In this document: piece by piece, positions 3,530-22,547 of the stretch
Position numbering within the stretch: the stretch's first letter is position 1
Layout of the letters: the number at the start of each line of letters is the position of its first letter
DNA from: a virus
Taxonomy: Duplodnaviria; Heunggongvirae; Uroviricota; Caudoviricetes
DNA: 22,547 bases
Direction: 5' to 3' (one strand)
Virus record (IMG/VR): IMGVR_UViG_2648501787_000004
Coordinates: 1-22,547 of that record
Translations under genes and position numbers: made by a program
Notes under the pieces: model-generated
What the model saw: the letters and a program-made list of their open reading frames with translations, nothing else
The model's database searches: none
Told to the model about the DNA's origin: nothing

Positions 3530-3551
3530 TCCTCACGCTCCATAAACGACA

Positions 3552-3571
3552 AAACCGCCCGCAGGCGGTTT
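3552..3571. promoter_or_regulatory. Conserved hairpin in the I-J intergenic region (AAACCGCC-cgca-GGCGGTTT)
   Basis: Perfect 8-bp inverted repeat with 4-nt loop; identical copy at 18395-18414. On the minus strand it is followed by a moderately T-rich tract, so it could act as an attenuator or RNA stability element; function not established. Confidence 0.3.
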
Positions 3572-3589
3572 CACATAAAACATTTTGCA

Positions 3590-4237
3590 TCAGCGACCAA
3601 TCACCACAACCTGACCACCGTCCCCTTCGTCTGCCGTGCTGATCTCCTGAGAAACCACCCGCGACCCCACACGCATTTCACCGTACAGAACAGGCAAAAC
3701 ATTGCCCTGAGCAACCATGTTATCCAGTGAGGAGAAATAGGTGTTCTGTTTGCCGTTATCTGTACTGGCTGCCGTGGGCGTCCTGGCTTTCGGTGCCAGC
3801 ATCTGCGCCACACCGCCCAGGATCATACTGGCCCCTGCCGCATACATGCCCGATACAGCCGCGGCACCCAGCCAGCCCACAGGGTTCCACCATGCCACCG
3901 CAATCAACGCCGCCCCCAGCACCACCTGAAATACACCGCCACTTTTAGCTCCCGCCAGACGCGGCACGATATGGATCACGGCACCATTTGCCAGCGGCTC
4001 ATTAAGACGGGCAGATAATTCGGTTTCACCTGCATCACGCCCGGCAATGCGCACCTGATACCAGCCGTCATTCAGCTTCTGACGAAACGCCGGGAGCTGT
4101 GTGGCCAGCGCCCGGATGGCTTCGGCCCCCGTTTTCACACGAAGGTCGATGCGGCGGCCAAATCGTTGCAAATCCCCGTAAAGGCAGATGCGTGCCATGC
4201 CCGGTGACGCCAGAGGGAGTGTGTGCGTCGCTGCCAT
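3590..4237 (-). CDS. I: Tail assembly protein I
   Basis: 215-aa ORF; N terminus MAATHTLPLASPGMARICLYGDLQRFGRRIDL... and C terminus ...NGKQNTYFSSLDNMVAQGNVLPVLYGEMRVGSRVVSQEISTADEGDGGQVVVIGR match my recollection of lambda I; overlaps the 3' end of K as in lambda. Confidence 0.9.
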   Translation of the reverse strand: MAATHTLPLASPGMARICLYGDLQRFGRRIDLRVKTGAEAIRALATQLPAFRQKLNDGWYQVRIAGRDAGETELSARLNEPLANGAVIHIVPRLAGAKSGGVFQVVLGAALIAVAWWNPVGWLGAAAVSGMYAAGASMILGGVAQMLAPKARTPTAASTDNGKQNTYFSSLDNMVAQGNVLPVLYGEMRVGSRVVSQEISTADEGDGGQVVVIGR

Positions 4238-4878
4238 TTGTCGGTATACCTCTCTCGTTTGCTCAGTTGTTCAGGAATATGGTGCAGCAGCTCGCCGTCA
4301 CCACAGTAAATGGCGGCATGATTCGGCACCGATGAACCAAAACAGCACAGCAGCACATCGCCCGGCTGCGCCGCTGACAACGGCACCTGATACAGCCTTG
4401 TGGCCTCCAGATTATCCAGATAGAGATTCTGACCGTGACGCCACCAGTCATCCCCGCGATGAAAATCCGGCATCTCAATCCCCGCCAGATGATAAGCATC
4501 CCGGAACAGCGTGTAACAGTCCGTCACCCCGTGCTCAAAGCGACGCCCGGTAAGATGCGGCACACAGCGGAATTTATGAATCTCACCCCGGCAGACCAGC
4601 CACCAAGGCAAATCGCTCTGCACCTGCAGCCGCCTGTCAGCCTCACTCAGCCAGGGCAGACCACCGGGGTGGCTGTGGACCAGCGCCACAATCTCACCCT
4701 GCATCTCTGCCCGCAGCCAGTCCTCCGGCGACATACGGAAATACGCCTCCGGTTCACCGGAGATATTCACGCAGGGAAAATATCTTTCCCCCTCCGGCGT
4801 TCTCACCACGAAGCCGCACGACTCCGCTGGCGCACATCGCCGGGCGTGCGCCAGAATCGCTGATTCTGTCTGTGTCAT
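4135..4878 (-). CDS. K: Tail assembly protein K (JAB/MPN plus NlpC/P60-type domains)
   Basis: Track ORF 4135-4953; the product probably starts at the internal Met (MTQTESAILAHARRCAPAESCGFVV..., ATG at 4878-4876) as in lambda K; the HSHPGG motif is typical of the MPN/JAB metalloprotease fold. Sits between L and I. Confidence 0.85.
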   Translation of the reverse strand: MTQTESAILAHARRCAPAESCGFVVRTPEGERYFPCVNISGEPEAYFRMSPEDWLRAEMQGEIVALVHSHPGGLPWLSEADRRLQVQSDLPWWLVCRGEIHKFRCVPHLTGRRFEHGVTDCYTLFRDAYHLAGIEMPDFHRGDDWWRHGQNLYLDNLEATRLYQVPLSAAQPGDVLLCCFGSSVPNHAAIYCGDGELLHHIPEQLSKRERYTDKWQRRTHSLWRHRAWHASAFTGICNDLAAASTFV

Positions 4879-12173: not shown

Positions 12174-14132
12174 TTACGCCGTACATTTCACCAGACCGCG
12201 GTGATCAACTGGCGCGACACCGGCGTCAATACGCACTTTCGTTGTCACGCCATCCACACTGAAGCCCTCCATCTGATCAATATATGGCGTATCCACACCG
12301 TTGAGATAAGCCACTTCAATCGTATCGGAGCCTTTTGACGCAGCCAGGTAGAAGGTGGTCTGGCTGTTATCATCAAGACGAGGCTCTGCAATAACGGTCG
12401 CAAAATCTTTCACCGGGTTAATAATACCGGCGTTAATGTCAGCCCCCTTGACACTTGAGGAGCGAATGACCTGGTTAGCAACAGACTCCATCGCCGTCGG
12501 TACCAGTACGAACGCAGGACGAATATTCAGATGACGCTCCCCCTCTTTCTGAACGCGCATCAACTGGCGGGCTTTATCCAGCGATGCCACGTCCATTGCA
12601 GCGCTCTCCAGTACGTTTGCATGTTTCGCTTTATCGAACAGACTTACATTATCTGTGGAGATTTTCGGGTTAGACGTCAGAATGGCATAAACCAGATCGG
12701 CAATAGTGGATTTCGCCGCACGGCCCAGCTTCATCGGGACATCGGTCAGCATATTCAGATCATCATTGATAATGGCCTGACGGGTGATACTGAACAGCTC
12801 GCCATAGGTCGCCAGTGCAATAGTGGCCTGTTTATCTCCGGTGGTGACGTATTTATATTCCGCCCCTTCACGCACCTGACGCAGAGCACTGAAGCCCCCC
12901 ATACCCACACGATGGGCAATTTTAAAATCAGACAACTGACCTTTCCGCGTCCACTGTTCATAGGTTTCAGGGGCATCTTCCCAGCCCTGCAGAATGGCTT
13001 TGTTCGCAACATCCAGCAGAATATTACCGAAGTCAGACGTACTGTGTGTGAACGCCGCACCGACCATCTGCATCGGGTTATAACTGGAAATCCCAATACC
13101 CCGTTCAGTCAGTGACATACGGGCATATTCACGCAGGGTCATCCCGTTGTAGACATTATCACGTTCGGTTTTTTCAAATCCGGCACGCGCCATCAGCGCC
13201 TGGCGAATCCCGTCCCCCACAAAATTACCGTTACCGGCATAAATATGAGCCGGGGTATTTTTATTGGATGGCGTGGACTCGCGCCCCATCTCGTTCAACA
13301 GCTTTTCGCGGGCCTGCTCCAGCGAACATTCAGGATCGGCAAGACACTGAGCCTGCAGCGTCTGATAACGCCCGCCAAACATGGCAAACAGATCATTAAT
13401 ACCGTTTACACGCGCTTTTTGCTCTGCCAGTACCTGCGCACGGATGCTGTTTTCATCCACCACGGGTGCTGCTGCCTGCACTGGCGTCCGGGAGGCTGCA
13501 GGTTCATCATCCTGTACGCGTGGAGCACTGTTGCGTGGCGGAGTAATCATGTTTCGAATGGATTCCGGCATCTTTTTAAATTCCTCTGTACGTTTTGACT
13601 GAATACATGCCATTGCCTTAACGGCTGGCGTCACCTGATCAGCAAATCCATGTGCCAGACATTCGGCACCGGACATCCAGGTCTCATCCGCCAGCATGGC
13701 AGCAATTTCATCGGTGGTTTTCCCGGTTTTCTGTGCATAAGCGGGTAACAGAACCGCCTCAACCTTATCGAGCAGGTCGGCATAGGTGCGCATGTCCTCC
13801 GCATCACCGCCCGTAAAGCCAAATGGTTTATGAATCATCATGAAGGTGTTTTCCGGCATAATGACCGGGTTTCCCACCATCGCAATGACCGACGCCATTG
13901 ACGCCGCCACACCGTCGACATAAACGGTAATGGACGCACCATGTGTTTTCAGTGCATTAAAAATGGCGATGCCTTCAAAGACATCGCCACCCGGTGAATT
14001 GATATGGAGATTAATGTGGGTGATATCGCCCAGTGCATTCAGATCACTGATAAACTGCTTCGCTGTAACACCCCAGAAACCAATCTCGTCATAAATATAA
14101 ATATCCGCGTCACTCTGGTGACCAGCCTGCAT
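12174..14132 (-). CDS. Prohead protease / scaffold / major capsid fusion protein (copy 1)
   Basis: Track ORF 12174-14393 extends into the portal gene; the likely start is MQAGHQSDADIYIYDEIG (ATG 14132-14130), 14 nt after the portal stop. N-terminal ClpP/S49-like protease region (HINLHINSPGGDVFEG...VDGVAASMASV), C-terminal region with capsid-like character; ~652 aa. Confidence 0.85.
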   Translation of the reverse strand: MQAGHQSDADIYIYDEIGFWGVTAKQFISDLNALGDITHINLHINSPGGDVFEGIAIFNALKTHGASITVYVDGVAASMASVIAMVGNPVIMPENTFMMIHKPFGFTGGDAEDMRTYADLLDKVEAVLLPAYAQKTGKTTDEIAAMLADETWMSGAECLAHGFADQVTPAVKAMACIQSKRTEEFKKMPESIRNMITPPRNSAPRVQDDEPAASRTPVQAAAPVVDENSIRAQVLAEQKARVNGINDLFAMFGGRYQTLQAQCLADPECSLEQAREKLLNEMGRESTPSNKNTPAHIYAGNGNFVGDGIRQALMARAGFEKTERDNVYNGMTLREYARMSLTERGIGISSYNPMQMVGAAFTHSTSDFGNILLDVANKAILQGWEDAPETYEQWTRKGQLSDFKIAHRVGMGGFSALRQVREGAEYKYVTTGDKQATIALATYGELFSITRQAIINDDLNMLTDVPMKLGRAAKSTIADLVYAILTSNPKISTDNVSLFDKAKHANVLESAAMDVASLDKARQLMRVQKEGERHLNIRPAFVLVPTAMESVANQVIRSSSVKGADINAGIINPVKDFATVIAEPRLDDNSQTTFYLAASKGSDTIEVAYLNGVDTPYIDQMEGFSVDGVTTKVRIDAGVAPVDHRGLVKCTA

Positions 14133-14145
14133 CCTGAACCAGGAA

Positions 14146-15654
14146 TTATTCTTCGGACTGGTCGTCGGTGTGCTGCGGCTCCTGTCGTTTCGTTGCGGCA
14201 CTGCTGCCTCCTTTATCACTGGCCGGATCGGTATCAAATACCAGATCCAGCTTGCGGTTTTCATCAATTTCGGCCTTGCGCCGACGTTTGACATCATCCG
14301 GATTACGACCACCAGCACGTACCCAGTCTGATTCTGTCGCCGCTCCACCACGAATCTGGATTTTCCAGGCCTCAGCCTCCTTAACAGGGTCAATCCACGG
14401 CATCACCGGTCCGGAATACACCGCGGTATACAGTGAAGAACGGTCAAGATCGCGGGGTAGCCTGATAACACCGGATGCCACAGCCTGTTTCAGCCAGGCA
14501 CGATACATCGGGCGGGTGACGGCACCAATAAACCAGTCCTGCAGGATCAGGTAGCCATCTGTGGATTCAACCAGCTCCTGACGCTGGGCGCTGTAAGTGC
14601 CGTTATAGTTGCGTGCCGTACTGGAAAAACTCAGACGACTGCCCGCCGCCACGGCACGCAACTGACCATTACGAAAAGTTTCAAGGTTAGGATTGGGACG
14701 ATCCGACTTCACCATTCCGATTTCTTCGCCGGGTTTCAGATCGTCGTAAATAATGCCTGGCTGAATGGTAAGCTCGCGTTCATTCTCCTTGCTGCCATTA
14801 CCATCCGGTTCATAGCTCTGCCCGTCGCCTTTCCGGATGTACATCCCCAGAGCAGCGGCGACCCTTGCTGCAGTCAGCTCAGAATCTTCATACTCTTTCA
14901 GGGCACTGAGGCGGATCAGCACACCGGACAACAAAGACGTCCCGCGCATCTGGTGCAGACGGCGAACAAATTTAAGATGCAGCATTCGCTCTGCATCCAC
15001 TTCTTTGGTTTCCATCTGCCGCCAGGATACGGGACGACTTTTATACACCAGATATTTTTCGGGACGCCCCCAGTCATCAACAAACACGCCCTGATTCAGC
15101 CTGTTGCTCTCATCACTGGTCATGGGAATAAAGTCTGGCTCGAGCGCCTCCAGCCAGAAATGAACACCGGCAGAAGGCGTCAGGTTGTTTATGCGCCCGG
15201 AAACCATCTGGGCAAACACCTCACCATCGCGCAGCCAGGTACGCAACATCAGACGTTCCAGCATCGGACGGGTAAACTGCCCGGTGACTTCCGGGCTGAC
15301 AGACCATTCACTCCATCGGGTGCGTATCTCCGCTGCCAGATCACGGGCAATGGCCCCATTGCGTAATACCGGATGTGGCTCGACAATAATCCCGTTTTTC
15401 CCCACCACCCGTTCTTCCAGCTTGTCAAATACACCAATAACCAGATCGTGGTTGTTATCAAGGTAACGGGCCTGCTCACGTAACGACACGGCCCCGTACT
15501 GGCTTAACTGGTCGGCAGTTCGGTTTTCCCGCCGGGCTTTGTGTGTCCGCGTCGTTTTTACGGCCTCATAAGCCTGGATCACCGCACGGGAACGCAGCCT
15601 TGCCGCTTTCCATCCTGGTGAAAAAACGCCAATCACATCATCAAGAATTGCCAT
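14146..15654 (-). CDS. Portal protein
   Basis: Track ORF 14146-15726; the likely start is MAILDDVIGVF at ATG 15654-15652, overlapping the W stop by 1 nt (TGATG); ~500 aa, acidic C-terminal tail; position between W and the capsid gene. Confidence 0.85.
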   Translation of the reverse strand: MAILDDVIGVFSPGWKAARLRSRAVIQAYEAVKTTRTHKARRENRTADQLSQYGAVSLREQARYLDNNHDLVIGVFDKLEERVVGKNGIIVEPHPVLRNGAIARDLAAEIRTRWSEWSVSPEVTGQFTRPMLERLMLRTWLRDGEVFAQMVSGRINNLTPSAGVHFWLEALEPDFIPMTSDESNRLNQGVFVDDWGRPEKYLVYKSRPVSWRQMETKEVDAERMLHLKFVRRLHQMRGTSLLSGVLIRLSALKEYEDSELTAARVAAALGMYIRKGDGQSYEPDGNGSKENERELTIQPGIIYDDLKPGEEIGMVKSDRPNPNLETFRNGQLRAVAAGSRLSFSSTARNYNGTYSAQRQELVESTDGYLILQDWFIGAVTRPMYRAWLKQAVASGVIRLPRDLDRSSLYTAVYSGPVMPWIDPVKEAEAWKIQIRGGAATESDWVRAGGRNPDDVKRRRKAEIDENRKLDLVFDTDPASDKGGSSAATKRQEPQHTDDQSEE

Positions 15655-15872
15655 CAGAACCTCGCCAGCCGGTACCCGGGATGCCCCCGTCGTCGTGTAA
15701 TCAGAGCCGCAAGGCGGCGCTCCCACTCCTGCCGTCCCTGCCGGATCTCAGATAAGTTTTCCATGGTCATCTGCTGACCATTAAAGGTGACGGATTTTCC
15801 GTCCAGCACCGCCATTTCAGCTTCCGTATAACGCTGAATCATGGCTTCGATATCATTCTGGTTCATAACCAT
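15654..15872 (-). CDS. W: Head-tail joining / head completion protein, gpW-like
   Basis: 72 aa (or 70 from Met3); C-terminal RRRGHPGY resembles the lambda W C terminus (RRRGPAGFYV); placed between terminase large subunit and portal as in lambda. Confidence 0.6.
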   Translation of the reverse strand: MVMNQNDIEAMIQRYTEAEMAVLDGKSVTFNGQQMTMENLSEIRQGRQEWERRLAALITRRRGHPGYRLARF

Positions 15873-16975
15873 CCTCCGGAAGTCAGCCAGGGGTTAACAT
15901 CGTCAGTTACTGTTTTCTTCCGTTTTTGTTTTTTAACAGGCGTGGATACCGGTTCCGGTGAGGGTGACGGTTTGGTACTGTCCGGGACACACTCCAGCCA
16001 GGTTTCCCGGCTCGCCCATTCCGGTGCATCCGGCCAGCGGATCTTTTCGTATCCATGCAGAATGACCAGAGCCTCGGCATACACCATCAGGTCAAAAGCT
16101 TCGTTGGCACCGCGACCCGGCTTACTCCATTTCCCGTCACTGCTCCGCTCTTCATACGTCAGTTCGTCGTAAAACCAGCTCCCCAGCCAGTCAGGGAAAT
16201 GCACATAGCCGGGACCTGGAGAGTCACGCCATAACGCGTTATTCACCCGGTCTTTCAGGGCATCCGTCTGAAGAAGCCAGAGCGGCACATCACCTGCGGC
16301 CTGCGCCCGTCGGCCCGTTCGTCCGGTGTTATCAGGGAATGTACGGGTGATCAGTTTTGCGCGCCGGATGCTGTCGCCCTTAAACAAGTAAATACGTTTA
16401 CCAAGGCCATCACGACGGCAACGACGCCAGAATTTATAGGCATTATCAGTGACCCCGTCTTCACCGCCGGAATCCACCGCCATTGCCATCAGTCGCATTT
16501 GTTGAGAAGGATCGGAGGCCAGCGGCCAGCTTTTATGAAAAACATCCGTCAGCAGGACATCCCAGTCTTCCGGATAGCTGGCCGGATCAATTCGCTGGCT
16601 CTCCCCGTCGCTGTCACCGCGCAATGACTGCGTGATGTTGTAACGATCAATAATCCAGCGTTCGCCACGGCTGCCATAGCCCGTTACCTGAACCACAAAA
16701 CGGCGATGACGTCCCGCCTGCACATCAACTGTCGCCACCAGGAAATTAACGCCATCCGGCACACTGCGGGAAGGAACTGGCTCTGCCCGCTGCTCAAGCA
16801 GTTCACTTTTTCGTTGCTCCATGCTGGCACGGGGAAGATAAGGTAATCCCCAGTCGGTATTGATAACCGTCTTGAGTGTTTCTTCACTTCCGGTTGTCTC
16901 GTATTCCTGTTCTGCAGTAAGCAGTTTGTAAACGAGTTGCGAGAGTGTCTGGTAAGCAGCTGCCGGACCCTCCAT
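15863..16975 (-). pseudogene. A: Terminase large subunit, C-terminal (nuclease) domain only; N-terminal ATPase domain absent
   Basis: 370-aa ORF resembling roughly the C-terminal half of lambda gpA (e.g. VATVDVQ..., WDSKKRRNEALDCFVYA-like region ...GANEAFDLMVYAEAL). Upstream in frame there are only 11 unrelated codons before a stop (17009-17011), and the sequence above 16980 is AT-rich non-coding DNA. Confidence 0.75.
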
Positions 16976-16979
16976 CCAG

Positions 16980-17440
16980 GAAGAAGTAAATAAAAGGTAA
17001 CTAAATGATTATAAGGTACTATTGAGTTATGCCCCCTACAACATAGTCCCAGATTTAGTACCTGCTTAAGCGATAAAAAAGCCAAAAAGGAAGCAATATT
17101 AATTATTGCCGCTATGCATGATCACAATGACAAATCAGAGGCGGAATTCCGCTCTCGGAACTCACATATGAGAAACGATATTTCTTCCACCGATACCCTT
17201 TATTTGGGTATCGCGAGTAAGCCCCAAAATCTGGGTGTTACTCTTACTACCCAAACTACGGGTAGTTTCCGTAGTTTCATAGTCGAGTTGCAGATCTGCA
17301 ACTCGCCACCAGTTGCTAAGTGCATTTTTGCACTTTCGATAATATCAACCAGTTACCGCCGTAAGTGCTCCGGCTTCCTCCACTGGTAAGTATTTTTCGC
17401 GCTCTCCCTCCGTTGTTGAGAACGGCGACGGTATGCCAGC
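16980..17440. other. AT-rich, palindrome-rich non-coding segment replacing the middle of the terminase large subunit gene
   Basis: Visibly AT-rich compared with flanking genes; contains the perfect 12-bp palindrome GCGGAATTCCGC (17141-17152), hairpin CGATACCC-n7-GGGTATCG (17191-17213), inverted repeat AAACTACGG-n7-CCGTAGTTT (~17252-17276) and a perfect 20-bp palindrome GAGTTGCAGATCTGCAACTC (17285-17304). No ORF with recognisable similarity. Confidence 0.6.
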
Positions 17441-17640
17441 AACTCAAGAACTCTGGTTCGTATGTTGCGCATATCAACGCCGTTAAGCTCAATACCGTCA
17501 CGGCGCATCACCTCAGCCACCACACGCGCGTAATTTTCAGCGGTGACTGTATCCGGCTGCGCGGCCTGTTCGTCAGCCAACTGGCTGATTCCACCAGCAC
17601 AGCGGATTAATCGCAGTATTTCAGATTCGGTCATTATCAT
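17353..17640 (-). pseudogene. Short ORF translationally coupled to the small terminase gene; probably the N-terminal remnant of the large terminase gene
   Basis: Its ATG overlaps the Nu1-like stop by 4 nt (17637-17640), the position where the large terminase gene normally starts; the last ~30 codons are Arg/Gln-rich and run into the AT-rich segment, suggesting read-through into non-native sequence. Homology to the gpA N terminus is weak. Confidence 0.35.
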
Positions 17641-18122
17641 GCCTGTTTTGCGACCTCATTCACTACGTCATTTTTTACCATCCGGCTGATAATCTGATTA
17701 CGCAAATCGTCAATAATTGACTGCACTCTGTTTACTGCCATCGGTTTAAGCCCGGCATCACGTGCCAGAATATTGGGGAGTTTTGCCAGTTCCTCGCTTA
17801 CGATTTCCCCCCATATAGCCATCTCTTTTCGCACATCATCGGCGGGTATGAGTTGCGCCGTTTCCTGTTCGAACTTGAGGCGCTCACGTTCGGACTGATA
17901 CCAGGCCTTACGGTCATGTGGCTCCATTTCTTCCAGTGATGCCGGAACGGGAAGATCAAGAAAACAGGTCAGAATGTCAGTCACCCGATAGAGTTTTAGC
18001 TTGTCATGCCCTCCGGCTGGCTGGATGTTTTTCAGCCTTGCCGCCGCAGTCTGACGACATATTCCCGCTATCGCCGCCAGTTGATTAATGTTCAGCATCA
18101 GATTTTTCAGTTCTCGATCCAT
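17637..18122 (-). CDS. Terminase small subunit, Nu1-like
   Basis: Track ORF 17637-18209; the likely start is MDRELKNLMLNINQLAAIAGICRQTAAARL (ATG 18122-18120, GGAG 7 nt upstream). N-terminal helix-turn-helix followed by a charged coiled region (ERERLKFEQETAQL), laid out like lambda Nu1; first gene after a cos-like region. Confidence 0.65.
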   Translation of the reverse strand: MDRELKNLMLNINQLAAIAGICRQTAAARLKNIQPAGGHDKLKLYRVTDILTCFLDLPVPASLEEMEPHDRKAWYQSERERLKFEQETAQLIPADDVRKEMAIWGEIVSEELAKLPNILARDAGLKPMAVNRVQSIIDDLRNQIISRMVKNDVVNEVAKQA

Positions 18123-18289
18123 ACCCGCTCCAGAATGTTTTAAACATGCATCTTGCGAACAACTTTCAGAAGAGGTCAAAAAATGCGCTATATGTTGAGC
18201 ATAAAACAAGCAAAATTAACATGCCAAAAATAAAAACACTTAAAATTCAATATCATAGAAAGATGATGATGACGAATGAAAATGCAAAA
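18123..18289. promoter_or_regulatory. cosB-like AT-rich region with repeated TGCAT-containing motifs between the cos candidate and the small terminase start
   Basis: Minus strand: ...tttttGCATtttcattcgtcat...tttttggCATGttaattttgcttgttttatgc...caagaTGCATGtttaaaac...; contains TTCGTCAT and TGTTTTTATTT, which I recall from lambda cosB. Possible terminase small subunit or IHF binding sites. Confidence 0.35.
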
Positions 18290-18370
18290 ACTAGCCTTTT
18301 TCCGCGCCGCTCCCGCCTCGCGGCAGGCCACCTCACCGGGAGGACCCACCCAAAAAAGGCGACTGTCACT
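18290..18370. promoter_or_regulatory. Candidate cos site (cosQ/cosN-like GC-rich element)
   Basis: Minus strand reads GGGTCCTCCCGGTGAGGTGGCCTGCCGCGAGGCGGGAGCGGCGCGG; the GGGTCCT..CCGGTGA stretch resembles my recollection of the lambda right-end flank (GGGTCCTTTCCGGTGATCC), and the element sits ~170-250 bp upstream of the Nu1-like start. The exact nick positions cannot be assigned. Confidence 0.4.
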
Positions 18371-18432
18371 ATTGTTTATGCTCCATGAGCGACAAAACCG
18401 CCCGCAGGCGGTTTCACATAAAACATTTTGCA

Positions 18433-19074
18433 TCAGCGACCAATCACCACAACCTGACCACCGTCACCTTCGTCTGCCGTGCTGATCTCCTGAGAAACCA
18501 CCCGCGACCCCACACGCATTTCACCGTACAGAACAGGCACAACATTGCCCTGGGCAACCATGTTATCCAGAGAGGAGAAATAGGTGTTCTGCTTACCGTT
18601 ATCCGTGGTGCTGGCTGTTGCTGTGCTGGCTTTCGGTGCCAGCATCTGTGCAACACCACCAAGTGTCATCGCCGCCCCCATTGAAAAGAGAATGTCACTG
18701 AAAGCGATACTGATTCCTGGCATCCAGATTGCCGTAGCAATCAGCGCCGCACCAAGCACCGCCTGAAACACGCCGCCACTTTTGGCACCAGCCAGACGCG
18801 GTACGATGTGGATCACGGCACCATTTTCCAGCGGTTCATTAAGACGGGCTGATAATTCGTTTTCGCCTGTATCACGCCCGGCAATACGCACCTGATACCA
18901 ACCATCGCTCAGTTTCTGACGAAACGCTGGGATCTGCATGGCCAGCGCCCGGATGGCTTCGGCCCCCGTTTTCACATGAAGATCGATGCGGCGGCCAAAT
19001 CGTTGTAAATCCCCGTAAAGGCAGATGCGTGCCATGCCCGGTGACGCCAGAGGGAGTGTGTGCGTCGCTGCCAT
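18433..19074 (-). CDS. I: Tail assembly protein I, second copy (mosaic allele)
   Basis: 213 aa; the N-terminal ~110 aa and C-terminal ~70 aa are almost identical to the I protein at 3590-4237, while the central hydrophobic segment differs (IATAIWMPGISIAFSDILFSMGAAMT versus IAVAWWNPVGWLGAAAVSGMYAAGASMI). Confidence 0.85.
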   Translation of the reverse strand: MAATHTLPLASPGMARICLYGDLQRFGRRIDLHVKTGAEAIRALAMQIPAFRQKLSDGWYQVRIAGRDTGENELSARLNEPLENGAVIHIVPRLAGAKSGGVFQAVLGAALIATAIWMPGISIAFSDILFSMGAAMTLGGVAQMLAPKASTATASTTDNGKQNTYFSSLDNMVAQGNVVPVLYGEMRVGSRVVSQEISTADEGDGGQVVVIGR

Positions 19075-19133
19075 TTGTCGGTATACCTCTCTCGTTTGCT
19101 CAGTTGTTCAGGAATATGGTGCGGCAGCTCGCC
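18972..19133 (-). pseudogene. 3'-terminal remnant of a K gene (truncated at the duplication boundary)
   Basis: The sequence upstream of I copy 2 matches the K/I overlap of copy 1 only up to ~19133, after which it diverges; no K-like N-terminal coding sequence follows. Lower boundary inferred by offset from copy 1. Confidence 0.45.
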
Positions 19134-19163
19134 GCCCCACGTGTTCAAAGTACCGCCTTGTTG

Positions 19164-21077
19164 TCATGCTCCATTCGATTTCAGCAATCCACGATAATCG
19201 AGGGCCGCGACACCTGCATCTATGCGCACCTTCCAGGCGACACCATCAACAGTAAAGCCCACCTGCTCCTCAAGATATGGCGTATCCATACCATCAAGAT
19301 AAGCGACTTCTATTGTGTCCATCCCCTTAGCTGCGGCTACATACCATTCCTTGCTATTGGCCTTATCAAGACGTGGCTCAACAATTACTTCTGCCATATC
19401 TTTCACAACGTTAATGATGCCGGGGTTCTGATTGATAGTGCCCTCATCACCAACCGGAAAGACTGATGACGATGACAGAATGGCGCGACGCGCGGCAGAT
19501 TCCAGCGCGGCAGGGACCAGAACAAAAGCAGGGGTAATATTCAGTGAGTCGCCGTTAGCATCCTCCTGGAGGCGCATCAGCTTACGGGCTTCATCAAGCC
19601 CCACCATGTCCATATCCTTCGCAATAAGATTTTTATGATCGGCATGGAATAACGCTTTACCATCCGTAAACTTGCCGTTGCTGGTTAACAGGAGATAAAC
19701 CAGATTGCCAACTGTTCTGGCGGCTGCGCGTCCCATTGCCATGGGGATTGTAGTTAACTGGGTCAGGTCATCGTTGATAATGGCCTGACGGGTAACGGAA
19801 AAAATATTCCCGTACGTGGCCAGCGCAATAGGTACACCTTTATCGCTGGTGGTGATGTATTTATATTCCGCACCTTCCGGTACTTTATCCAGCTTTGAAA
19901 AACCATTCAGACCAACGCGCTTTGCTTCATGAAAGTTTGAAAGCGAACCGGTACGCGTCCATTTCTGGAACGTTTCGCCGCTGTCCTGCCAGCCTTTCAG
20001 TACAGATTTTTCAGCCCCACCAGCCAGAATATGAGAAAAATCACTGCTGCTGTGTGTAAAAGCCGCATTAACAACCTGCGAGCGATTAATAAAACCACTC
20101 ACAGTGATACCACGATCAACCAGTGATGCCTGGGCCATTTCAAAAAGGCTCATCATCGCGTAAGGGTTGCCTCGTTCAGGGCGTTCATACCCAAGACGGG
20201 AATAAAGCCCCTGACGAATTGCATCACCTGTTATGTTTCCGTTTCCGGCATAGATATGAGGCGGGGTATTTTTATTGGATGGCGTGGACTCGCGCCCCAG
20301 CTCGTTCAACAGCTTTTCACGGGCCATTTCCGGTGTACATGATGCATCTTCCAGACACGCCATTTTGATCCCGTCGTAACGACTGCCGAACAGGCTAAAC
20401 ACTTCACTTATTCCATTGATGCGTTTCTGTTCATTACCAGCAATATTTGCCGCTCCCTGTGGCGGTGTAATCATTCCTTTAATGGTTTCCGGCATATGTA
20501 AAAAATCTCCTGTGCGCTTCGATTCAATTCGCGCCATTGCTCTGACGGATGGCAACAATTCATCAGCAAAACCGTGCTTAAGGCATTCTTTCCCGTCCAT
20601 CCAGGTTTCATCTTCCAGCATGGCGGTAATTTCCTGTGCTGATTTGCCCGTTTTTCTGGCATAAGCAGGGACTAACACGGTTTCCACCTTATCCAGCAAA
20701 TCAGCATAATCACGCATATCACCAGCATTTCCGCCAGAGATACCCCACGGCTTATGTATCATCATCATGGCGTTTTCCGGCATCACAACACGATCGCCAG
20801 CCATTGCGACCACCGAAGCCATTGAAGCCGCAACACCATCGATATAAACCGTAATGTCTGCCGGATGATTCCGTAGCAGGTTATAGATGGCGATGCCTTC
20901 AAACACATCACCACCTGGTGAATGGATCCTCAGATTGATATGTGAAACATCGCCAAGGGCTTTCAGGTCTTCCGCGAACTGCTTTGCAGTAACACCGAAG
21001 CCGCCAATCTCCTCATAGATAGATATATCCGCCGCTCCGCGAACATCCGCCGCCTTAATGGTGTACCAGCGATTCAT
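19164..21077 (-). CDS. Prohead protease / scaffold / major capsid fusion protein (copy 2, divergent)
   Basis: 637 aa, colinear with copy 1 over its whole length but clearly diverged (by eye roughly 60-70% identity); same ClpP/S49-like motifs (HINLRIHSPGGDVFEG, VDGVAASMASV). ATG 21077-21075 with a G-rich RBS; ATGA overlap with the upstream small ORF. Confidence 0.85.
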   Translation of the reverse strand: MNRWYTIKAADVRGAADISIYEEIGGFGVTAKQFAEDLKALGDVSHINLRIHSPGGDVFEGIAIYNLLRNHPADITVYIDGVAASMASVVAMAGDRVVMPENAMMMIHKPWGISGGNAGDMRDYADLLDKVETVLVPAYARKTGKSAQEITAMLEDETWMDGKECLKHGFADELLPSVRAMARIESKRTGDFLHMPETIKGMITPPQGAANIAGNEQKRINGISEVFSLFGSRYDGIKMACLEDASCTPEMAREKLLNELGRESTPSNKNTPPHIYAGNGNITGDAIRQGLYSRLGYERPERGNPYAMMSLFEMAQASLVDRGITVSGFINRSQVVNAAFTHSSSDFSHILAGGAEKSVLKGWQDSGETFQKWTRTGSLSNFHEAKRVGLNGFSKLDKVPEGAEYKYITTSDKGVPIALATYGNIFSVTRQAIINDDLTQLTTIPMAMGRAAARTVGNLVYLLLTSNGKFTDGKALFHADHKNLIAKDMDMVGLDEARKLMRLQEDANGDSLNITPAFVLVPAALESAARRAILSSSSVFPVGDEGTINQNPGIINVVKDMAEVIVEPRLDKANSKEWYVAAAKGMDTIEVAYLDGMDTPYLEEQVGFTVDGVAWKVRIDAGVAALDYRGLLKSNGA

Positions 21078-21780: not shown

Positions 21781-22547
21781 TTAATTTTTGCTATCGTCAT
21801 TAGTGACCGATACACATGATGGCATCCAGTCTTCTGATTCCTCCGTCAGTGTCACGTTTGAACGCAAACCGTGCTTCGTTTTCCGTTTCATATACTCCCT
21901 GCCATATTCCGCCATTGCCCCCGGCATATCTTTACCGAAGCGCGTCAGTGTTACAGGTTTACCAAACCCATGTGCCCTCATATAAGCCAGATAGGCATGA
22001 TAGAGATACCTGCGTGGGCTGAATGGCACAATTTCAGCATTACCCACTAACAGGCCATCACACATTACCGACGCCATGAGATAGCCGCAGAAGTCCACCA
22101 GCGAATCCCCCTCTCGCTTTATCGCCAGTGCTTCTTCAGATTTCTGCTGCTCATATAACAGGCGTCTGGCTTCGTCCTGGTTAGCAAACCGTGTAAGCAG
22201 ATGGCGAATCACTACCGCCAGCTCACCTTCTATTTTTTCCGCCAGCATTGGATCACGTTCGTTCTCCGGTACAACTTCCGAAAAATTGAATATCACCCGA
22301 CGACGTGAGATCCCCCCGCTGCGGTCACTGAATGACATGGCGTTATTGTTAACCGCCAGCACTACTGCCGGAATACGCGTTGAGTAGGGGGCTTTGTGTT
22401 TCGGGTCAATTGCCACCTTGTCACCGCCTGTAATAGCCTTAATCCCTGCTCCATCACCAGCGTAGCGGGTCATATCCGGCATGATAATCAGCGAAAAGCC
22501 AACCACTAACGCGCGTTCCCTTGCATCTTCCAGCGCCTTCATGCTTG
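21781..22547 (-). CDS. Phage/plasmid primase, P4 family, C-terminal region (partial; 5' end outside the window)
   Basis: Open frame from the window edge to the stop at 21781; contains ITGGDKVAI...RRRVIFNFSEVVPENERD...IEGELAVVIRHLL, which matches my recollection of the conserved C-terminal region of P4 alpha-type primases (D5_N/primase_Cterm). Direct adjacency to TGTTCACC iterons supports this. Confidence 0.7.
   Translation of the reverse strand, partial: SMKALEDARERALVVGFSLIIMPDMTRYAGDGAGIKAITGGDKVAIDPKHKAPYSTRIPAVVLAVNNNAMSFSDRSGGISRRRVIFNFSEVVPENERDPMLAEKIEGELAVVIRHLLTRFANQDEARRLLYEQQKSEEALAIKREGDSLVDFCGYLMASVMCDGLLVGNAEIVPFSPRRYLYHAYLAYMRAHGFGKPVTLTRFGKDMPGAMAEYGREYMKRKTKHGLRSNVTLTEESEDWMPSCVSVTNDDSKN

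Follow-up and report, generated by a model that had tools for sequence, protein, structure and literature searches.

The 22,547-nucleotide window analysed here, a stretch of the tailed-phage record IMGVR_UViG_2648501787_000004, very probably contains the right attachment junction (attR) of a satellite of the phage-inducible chromosomal island (PICI) type, ~10.4 kb in length, that was integrated by a tyrosine recombinase into the large terminase gene (terL) of an mEp460-like lambdoid prophage. Aligned with the intact gene, the insertion point corresponds to the codons of Trp330 and Met331, at the boundary between the ATPase and nuclease domains of TerL, and the satellite is co-oriented with the late operon of the prophage, which would serve as its helper. 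All genes relevant to this arrangement are encoded on the minus strand of the window. A preliminary description of the same DNA had ascribed the missing ATPase domain to a deletion; the interruption of terL and the lack of its ATPase half within the window stand, but not deletion as the cause, since both halves are present in related loci.

The split terL gene and its attachment sites

The break in terL is defined by three adjoining features:

15863-16979, minus strand: 3' part of the helper terL (codons ~329-701) with the complete gpA nuclease domain, identified by Pfam, blastn and tblastn
16968-16979, minus strand: attR copy of the attachment core, CTGGATGGAGGG, equivalent to nucleotides 987-998 of mEp460 terL and to TerL codons 329-333
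16980-17352, minus strand: right end of the satellite, assigned to an arm of attP (the junction of the excised satellite), with no terL homology and nearly invariant among five islands

The open reading frame (ORF) at 15863-16975 encodes 370 amino acids that cover positions 6-294 of the 294-position GpA_nuclease profile (PF20454, E = 3.4e-83), the sole Pfam match, and that are 97-99.7% identical (tblastn) to the C-terminal part of TerL from isolated lambdoid phages such as mEp460, Ayreon, cdtI, PhiR47_1 and others, with 99% for mEp460, Ayreon and PhiR47_1. This agrees with the earlier assignment of the ORF to the nuclease half alone. The reported lack of ATPase-coding DNA likewise holds for the whole window, where a six-frame tblastn search with residues 1-330 of mEp460 TerL reached a best E of 0.9 and where none of the 370-, 95- and 190-amino-acid ORFs contains a Walker A motif. 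At the nucleotide level, positions 987-2103 of mEp460 terL are collinear with window positions 16979-15863 (98.8%, blastn), and upstream of nucleotide 987 the two sequences are unrelated. On this alignment, the ATG at 16975 is the internal Met331 codon of TerL rather than a start codon.

The other half of the gene is located in related genomes. The closest relative of the whole window is Escherichia coli A20, with 96.3% identity over 95% of its length, and the five annotated relatives used for comparison were B1-56 (L001), A20 (L003), O121 RM8352 (L005), 61_150228 (L006) and O157:H7 3-5-1 (L146). All five loci carry the ATPase half of terL ~10.2-10.8 kb away, on the far side of a tyrosine integrase gene and of a repeated copy of the core. 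The N-terminal fragment of A20 comprises a complete GpA_ATPase domain (PF05876, E = 1.5e-72) with the Walker A sequence GPARTGKT. Both A20 and B1-56 retain terL nucleotides 1-998 as well as 987-2103, each ~99% identical to mEp460, with the halves 10,413 bp apart in A20 and 10,828 bp apart in B1-56; the annotations of the relatives list the two parts as pseudogenes, 'missing C-terminus' for the first and 'missing N-terminus' for the second. In-silico removal of the island (10,197-10,828 bp) restores an uninterrupted TerL of 700 amino acids in B1-56, 700 in A20 and 707 in 61_150228. For O121 RM8352, one T too many remains after direct joining at TGG|ATG, which would fit a crossover a little to the left of the join point used.

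An internal deletion that removed the ATPase half, leaving a defective prophage kept for its tail or particle functions, would fit a window that holds no ATPase-coding sequence. However, the terL homology ends exactly at the 12-bp core at 16968-16979, and all the related loci examined have, at the very position of the break, a duplicated att core and an island with an integrase that separates the two halves. Comparison with intact homologues, from which the end points of a deletion were to be drawn, reveals instead that both halves are kept in the related loci without the loss of a single base, and that the DNA abutting the break is foreign satellite DNA and not the terS-proximal part of terL. 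A deletion is thus very unlikely, and the prophage is better explained as a helper with a satellite embedded in it than as a relict maintained for its tails.

The position of the break could also be natural if ATPase and nuclease were separate polypeptides in this terminase family, as the N-terminal fragment stops right after Met331 and the C-terminal fragment starts at the same Met codon. Yet in the isolated phages mEp460, Ayreon, cdtI, PhiR47_1 and others, TerL is one polypeptide of ~700 amino acids, the gene is uninterrupted in ~1,400 E. coli genomes, whose match stops at the same base as the attR break, and no Shine-Dalgarno-like sequence can be read before the ATG at 16975. The probability of a naturally divided enzyme is therefore practically nil.

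The attachment sites are compatible with integration of the satellite at this position. The 12-bp core is found at both ends of the island in A20 and B1-56, with one mismatch, a copy of A20 being located at 16618-16629 of L003. The empty site (attB) reads CATT-CTGGATG-GAGGGGCCGG, attL reads CATT-CTGGATG-TAGGGTACATTT and attR reads CTTC-CTGGATG-GAGGG(G/T)CCGG, a pattern that would be expected for tyrosine-integrase recombination within a core of ~7 bp; the expected junction sequences are CATTCTGGATGGAGGGG for attB, CTTCTTCCTGGATGTAGGGTACATT for attP and ...TGGATGTAGGGTACATTTC for attL. Among the helper variants of O121 RM8352 and 61_150228, the flanking bases vary and TGGATG is kept. This invariant part of the core comprises the Trp330 and Met331 codons of TerL, and because Trp and Met are each specified by a single codon, we suggest that the target is unable to drift by synonymous change. 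At attL, the sequence ...TTC TGG ATG TAG shows that an island base provides a TAG stop straight after Met331, such that the ATPase fragment terminates exactly at the domain boundary. The island itself contains no terL-like sequence, and attP brings no replacement for the target gene.

The DNA between the core and the last island gene had been described as ~450 bp of AT-rich non-coding sequence. Its composition was correctly recognized (40.6% G+C for 16976-17352, compared with 53.2% for the whole window, with no credible ORF), but its length is 377 bp. A putative arm-type site is present within it:

17068-17077, minus strand: candidate arm-type site TTTATCGCTT, with the TTATCG repeat

The TTATCG repeat recurs in the reconstructed attP, at -100 and at +109/+119. 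Within the same region, the 213 nucleotides that follow the gene for a 95-amino-acid protein (17140-17352, minus strand) form about eight successive hairpins or palindromes, with a minimum free energy of -83.6 kcal/mol compared with -51.6 +/- 4.3 kcal/mol for shuffled sequences (z = -7.5). The first hairpin displays compensatory changes among the islands, and a perfect palindrome of 20 bp (17285-17304) is matched by a palindromic counterpart 3' of the homologous gene in capsid-forming PICIs (cf-PICIs). Rfam searches of the AT-rich stretch, the whole window and locus L003 returned no family, including a search of window 16900-18500 up to an E of 1. The hairpins may represent protein-binding sites of the attP arm, atypical terminators or a non-coding RNA.

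Gene content of the island and its helper

The window encompasses the late zone of the satellite and the 3' end of its primase gene, flanked by the helper genes that lie directly downstream of terL:

14146-15872, minus strand: helper genes directly downstream of terL, adaptor and lambda-family portal (Phage_portal_2, E = 3.5e-82)
15654-15872, minus strand: gpW-like head-tail adaptor of the helper (phrog_118)
17353-17640, minus strand: 95-amino-acid protein, last gene of the island (phrog_1561, E = 3.3e-51), translationally coupled to terS
17637-18122, minus strand: satellite small terminase subunit (TerS) of the DUF1441 family, 161 amino acids from the ATG at 18122 (Pfam E = 2.9e-36; phrog_141 'terminase small subunit', E = 1.5e-57)
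18285-18347, minus strand: cos-like GC-rich block of 63 bp (GGGTCCTCCCGGTG...GGCTAGTTTTTG), from alignment with the helper and mEp460 regions
18380-19134, minus strand: captured tail segment of 755 bp, helper-type, with the 3' end of K, gene I and a terminator hairpin
18394-18413: terminator hairpin in the captured segment
18433-19074, minus strand: tail assembly gene I, 213 amino acids (Pfam Lambda_tail_I)
19164-21077, minus strand: fusion of a ClpP-like prohead protease with the major capsid protein, 637 amino acids (CLP_protease and Phage_capsid_4)
21781-22547, minus strand: C-terminal part of a D5-family primase/helicase (Pox_D5 and DUF5906), cut by the window end

The order of the remaining genes is taken from the five annotated relatives. 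There, the helper terS (DUF1441) and the N-terminal part of terL are followed by the tyrosine integrase (Arm-DNA-bind_3 and Phage_integrase), a small AlpA-like helix-turn-helix (HTH) protein and a BRO-N protein, then by YlcI/YnfO-family, Icd-like and DUF4222 proteins, the D5-type primase and a hypothetical protein plus single-stranded DNA-binding protein (SSB; not in A20). The late zone continues with the ClpP-protease/capsid fusion, in some variants a DUF1441 TerS, a protein of 93-95 amino acids and the C-terminal part of terL, beyond which the gpW-like adaptor, the portal, the helper capsid fusion and the tail genes resume the helper operon; the gene order downstream of terL is the same as in mEp460. 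The orientation is that of the helper late operon throughout, bar one or two small genes on the opposite strand (in every locus, the YlcI/YnfO-family gene). Pfam matches in the A20 island include Arm-DNA-bind_3/Phage_integrase, Bro-N, DUF4222 and a D5_N/Pox_D5 primase, and the AlpA-like gene matches HTH_17 weakly (E = 0.004), under the Pfam cut-off. The full-length primase homologue of A20 is 87% identical to the primase of the helper-embedded PICI (HE-PICI) 11capE. No portal, TerL, connector, tail-tube or lysis genes are present in the island. Judged by its gene content, the anatomy is that of a Gram-negative PICI-type satellite.

The 95-amino-acid protein and the neighbouring TerS had previously been taken, as a short coupled ORF and a Nu1-like gene, for packaging genes of the prophage. 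The coupling is genuine, as the start of the 17353-17640 ORF overlaps the stop codon of the upstream DUF1441/TerS-like gene (ATGA), but both genes belong to the inserted satellite. Homologues of the 95-amino-acid protein (phrog_1561) form 862 clusters in Enterobacteriaceae, namely E. coli, Shigella, Salmonella and E. albertii, and among 50,697 phage records one weak partial match was found; the protein therefore looks satellite-specific. It is highly conserved, with a basic helix at its C terminus. Neither Pfam nor NCBIfam contains a match and no sequence match in the PDB has an E below 0.5; the AlphaFold2 model is of low confidence (predicted local distance difference test score 60, predicted template modelling score 0.31). 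A fragment of TerL or TerS was considered for this ORF and rejected, as it has no similarity to either.

The satellite TerS shares 67.5% amino acid identity with the helper TerS in A20, and terS together with its upstream region is 74% identical between island and helper over 662 bp (blastn). The 63-bp block at 18285-18347 is nearly identical to a block upstream of terS in both the helper and mEp460, and is probably a shared cos element. When window 17637-18122 is compared with the corresponding loci (L005 17289-19178 and L006 17060-18949), the islands of the O121, O157:H7 and 61_150228 genomes have no terS of their own, while the capsid fusion and a terminal gene of 93 amino acids are kept. 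An island-encoded TerS is therefore optional in this island family. The capsid fusion of the satellite is 57% identical at the amino acid level to the helper fusion at 12174-14393. The captured segment at 18380-19134 shares 87% nucleotide identity with the copy of the helper at window 3537-4297 (85% for protein I), and is present in the window and A20, but not in the otherwise similar B1-56 island; it looks like a recent case of late-gene capture by a PICI.

Such duplications could also be left by two tandem or overlapping prophages that recombined into a chimera with a duplicate capsid gene, terS and tail gene I: the window has two protease-capsid fusions and two tail I genes, and the relatives have two DUF1441 genes. 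The insert, however, measures just 10.2-10.8 kb and holds no lysis, portal or tail genes beyond the captured K'-I segment. It is organized like a PICI (int/AlpA, Bro, primase, late zone), and its two ends are marked by a short direct repeat within a single gene. A chimera of this kind is extremely improbable.

Recurrence and a model for excision

The same junctions recur in many genomes. Among 5,426 complete E. coli genomes, the attR junction is present in 80 and the integrase end of the island in 90 (98 places), where it adjoins a truncated 'phage terminase large subunit' in 58 of 60 cases among the matches listed. In IMG/VR, the attR junction occurs in 23 contigs, the attL junction in 34 and both in 11; in two of the 11, the junctions lie in a single locus examined, ~10.3-10.4 kb apart. 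Carriers include strains of serotypes O157:H7, O121:H19, O145:H28, O111, O103:H2 and O45:H2. Nucleotide differences between the helper terL genes reach ~19%, implying that integration occurred repeatedly and was not inherited from a single event. The helper of O157:H7 3-5-1 shows the arrangement typical of Shiga toxin (Stx) phages (Q, tRNA-Ile-Arg-Arg, DUF6645 and lysis genes), with no stx genes in the region examined.

Several observations weigh against the reading of the window as part of an embedded satellite. The window ends inside the primase gene, so the left half of the island and the N-terminal part of terL are deduced from relatives: attL, int and terL-N of the source genome lie outside it, and the best relative is 96.3% identical. 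From the relatives, the ATPase half of terL should be encountered ~5 kb past the right window edge, after the replication, Bro and integrase/AlpA modules, with the prophage terS before it. Searches of viral contigs, of metagenome contigs and of the complete E. coli genomes did not recover the excised attP junction; a synthetic attP query gave 190 half-length matches in the same 90 genomes, about two ends per genome, and no full-length match. The island is also in none of the records of sequenced phage particles. Finally, the helper protease-capsid fusion of O121 RM8352 (L005 11575-13602) is annotated with an internal stop, which indicates that at least some helper-satellite composites are decaying.

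Some of these observations would also be explained by a composite that, once formed by insertion of the satellite, has become a fixed, non-excising relic, in which terL is permanently split and the prophage in effect defective. The attP junction is missing from every collection searched, pseudogenes affect not only the O121 RM8352 capsid gene but also an island gene that is frameshifted in 61_150228 and O157:H7 3-5-1, and many HE-PICI helpers look truncated, with virions not recovered (Tommasini et al.). In contrast, both terL halves are ~99% identical to those of functional isolated phages and have no internal stops, the integrase ORF is annotated as intact in five of the five relatives (a truncated integrase domain protein appears in three of 60 among the matches listed), and a terL nucleotide difference of ~15-19% between helpers implies repeated independent integrations. 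A relic is thus rather unlikely, although the copy in the window may be one.

What we infer about excision, its timing and the packaging of the satellite follows the model of a helper-embedded PICI. While integrated, the satellite would block production of the helper TerL. The DNA from attL to int is free of terminator-like sites, and the alpA-like gene is followed by a strong terminator, so that late transcripts of the helper should run from terS and terL-N into int and alpA. Late transcription of lambda is Q-antiterminated and terminator-resistant. Upon induction of the prophage, late transcripts from terS and terL-N would thus enter the satellite int and alpA genes, and the integrase together with AlpA would excise the satellite and restore terL exactly, such that TerL would be made, and packaging would begin, only after excision. 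The satellite would then replicate with its own primase and compete through its own TerS, cos-like site and protease-capsid fusion, while borrowing the TerL, portal, connectors/adaptor and tail of the helper. Packaging may involve small heads built from its own capsid fusion, or island multimers in helper-sized heads; four copies of 10.4 kb come close to the 44.5-kb genome of mEp460.

The arrangement affects how such prophages are interpreted. Prophage callers, the Prokaryotic Genome Annotation Pipeline (PGAP) and a human reader would all be led by a 'terminase gpA endonuclease subunit' pseudogene to call the prophage defective, yet the split in terL would be reversible and the prophage may be fully competent after the satellite leaves. 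With the packaging motor under the control of the insertion, the timing of all packaging, of helper and satellite DNA alike, could be set by the satellite. The island is carried by several major Shiga-toxin-producing E. coli serotypes, in which prophage mobility matters for the spread of toxin genes.

Comparison with known satellites and switches

The arrangement itself has been known since 2023, when HE-PICIs were described by Tommasini, Mageeney and Williams (NAR Genom Bioinform 5:lqad036, PMC10111431) from the founder Eco567.11capE of E. coli NRG857c, with 491 elements at 14 sites in nine lambdoid late genes; excision of 11capE was shown experimentally, after the composite had excised and replicated (PMC10111431). 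The present element has the broad HE-PICI configuration, with attR inside terL in the window, and with both junctions and co-oriented main genes in the five relatives. As in HE-PICIs, the target gene is disrupted without a replacement, homologues of helper late genes are present, including signs of late-gene capture, and the four zones (int/AlpA, Bro, replication with primase and SSB, and late) are arranged within the size range of ~10-16 kb.

The site and the integration module differ. The gene A (terL) sites catalogued in the available text, A:Terminase_1:132 and :246 (PMC10111431), lie in Terminase_1-family genes, whereas the present target is a GpA-family TerL, entered between PF05876 and PF20454. 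Indeed, the present site matches none of the 14 catalogued sites in the searchable data, 'GpA' does not occur in the text or the searchable supplement text, and the attL data available there contain no junction like the present one, the single CTGGATG being a portal site (PMC10111431). A literature search returned no further paper, nor any later one, on this insertion site.

The integrase is 25% identical to that of 11capE (89 bits, BLASTP), which suggests a position outside the single clade of HE-PICI integrases; this value is below the 34-40% that it shares with the P4-type integrases from Thalassotalea, Colwellia, Vibrio and Pasteurellaceae, and no relative in other species exceeds 40% among species representatives. 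The attP arms also differ. In the HE-PICI clade, a doubled motif, TGTATTGC / tgTGTATTGCantgTGTATTGCa, is located ~81 bp upstream and ~132 bp downstream of the core (PMC10111431). No match to the doubled motif was found in the window (up to three mismatches), and no half-site in the reconstructed attP (up to one mismatch), whereas the 11capE attP, used as positive control, yielded half-sites at -100/-88 and +134/+146. Rather, the present island has the TTATCG repeat at comparable distances. In addition, some variants of the present island differ from HE-PICIs in carrying their own TerS. Tommasini et al. used integrase similarity as the seed of their survey, and this would account for the omission of the present island.

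The present island is, in summary, a helper-embedded satellite at a new site and with a different integration module, and extends the helper-embedded concept to another TerL family and to an integrase apparently unrelated to the published clade. The latter argues that helper embedding has evolved more than once. We lean towards the view that a second integrase lineage, separate from the published HE-PICI clade, independently evolved to target TGGATG in GpA-family TerL on an 11capE-type replication backbone. If so, helper embedding would be a convergent, selectable strategy of satellites and not a quirk of one clade, and ~1.7% of the complete E. coli genomes would hold a reversible off-switch for the packaging motor of an mEp460-like or Stx-phage-like prophage.

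The island also shares features with PICIs that do not reside in a helper. Among the cf-PICIs is EcCIEDL933. The cf-PICIs (bioRxiv 10.1101/2022.09.08.507074), with three loci compared here (L008-L010), likewise have their own capsid protein, prohead protease and TerS, as well as a terminal phrog_1561 gene of 93-97 amino acids (10001-10294 in L008-L010), which there overlaps the TerL stop codon and is likewise followed by the first hairpin and the palindrome. Unlike cf-PICIs, the present island lacks TerL, portal, HNH and head-tail connector genes, and hence the full head and packaging set. Without TerL, portal and connectors, it would be unable to build or fill capsids alone. Moreover, it sits in its helper, whereas cf-PICIs occupy a chromosomal site.

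The cos-PICI EcCICFT073 uses the protein Rpp. Similar to the present island, it has an Int-AlpA-primase backbone, a cos-like site that matches that of its helper, and a lambdoid helper. By contrast, cos-PICIs occupy chromosomal genes and interact with their helpers in trans only, and EcCICFT073 has no terS.

Known switches that regulate gene integrity include the skin element in sigK and the phage phi10403S in comK. As in these systems, a gene is split by an integrative element and would be restored by precise excision at a defined moment, a concept discussed in connection with HE-PICIs (PMC10111431). In the regulatory switches, however, the cell benefits, whereas here the split gene is that of a second mobile element, the helper phage, and presumably it is the satellite that profits.

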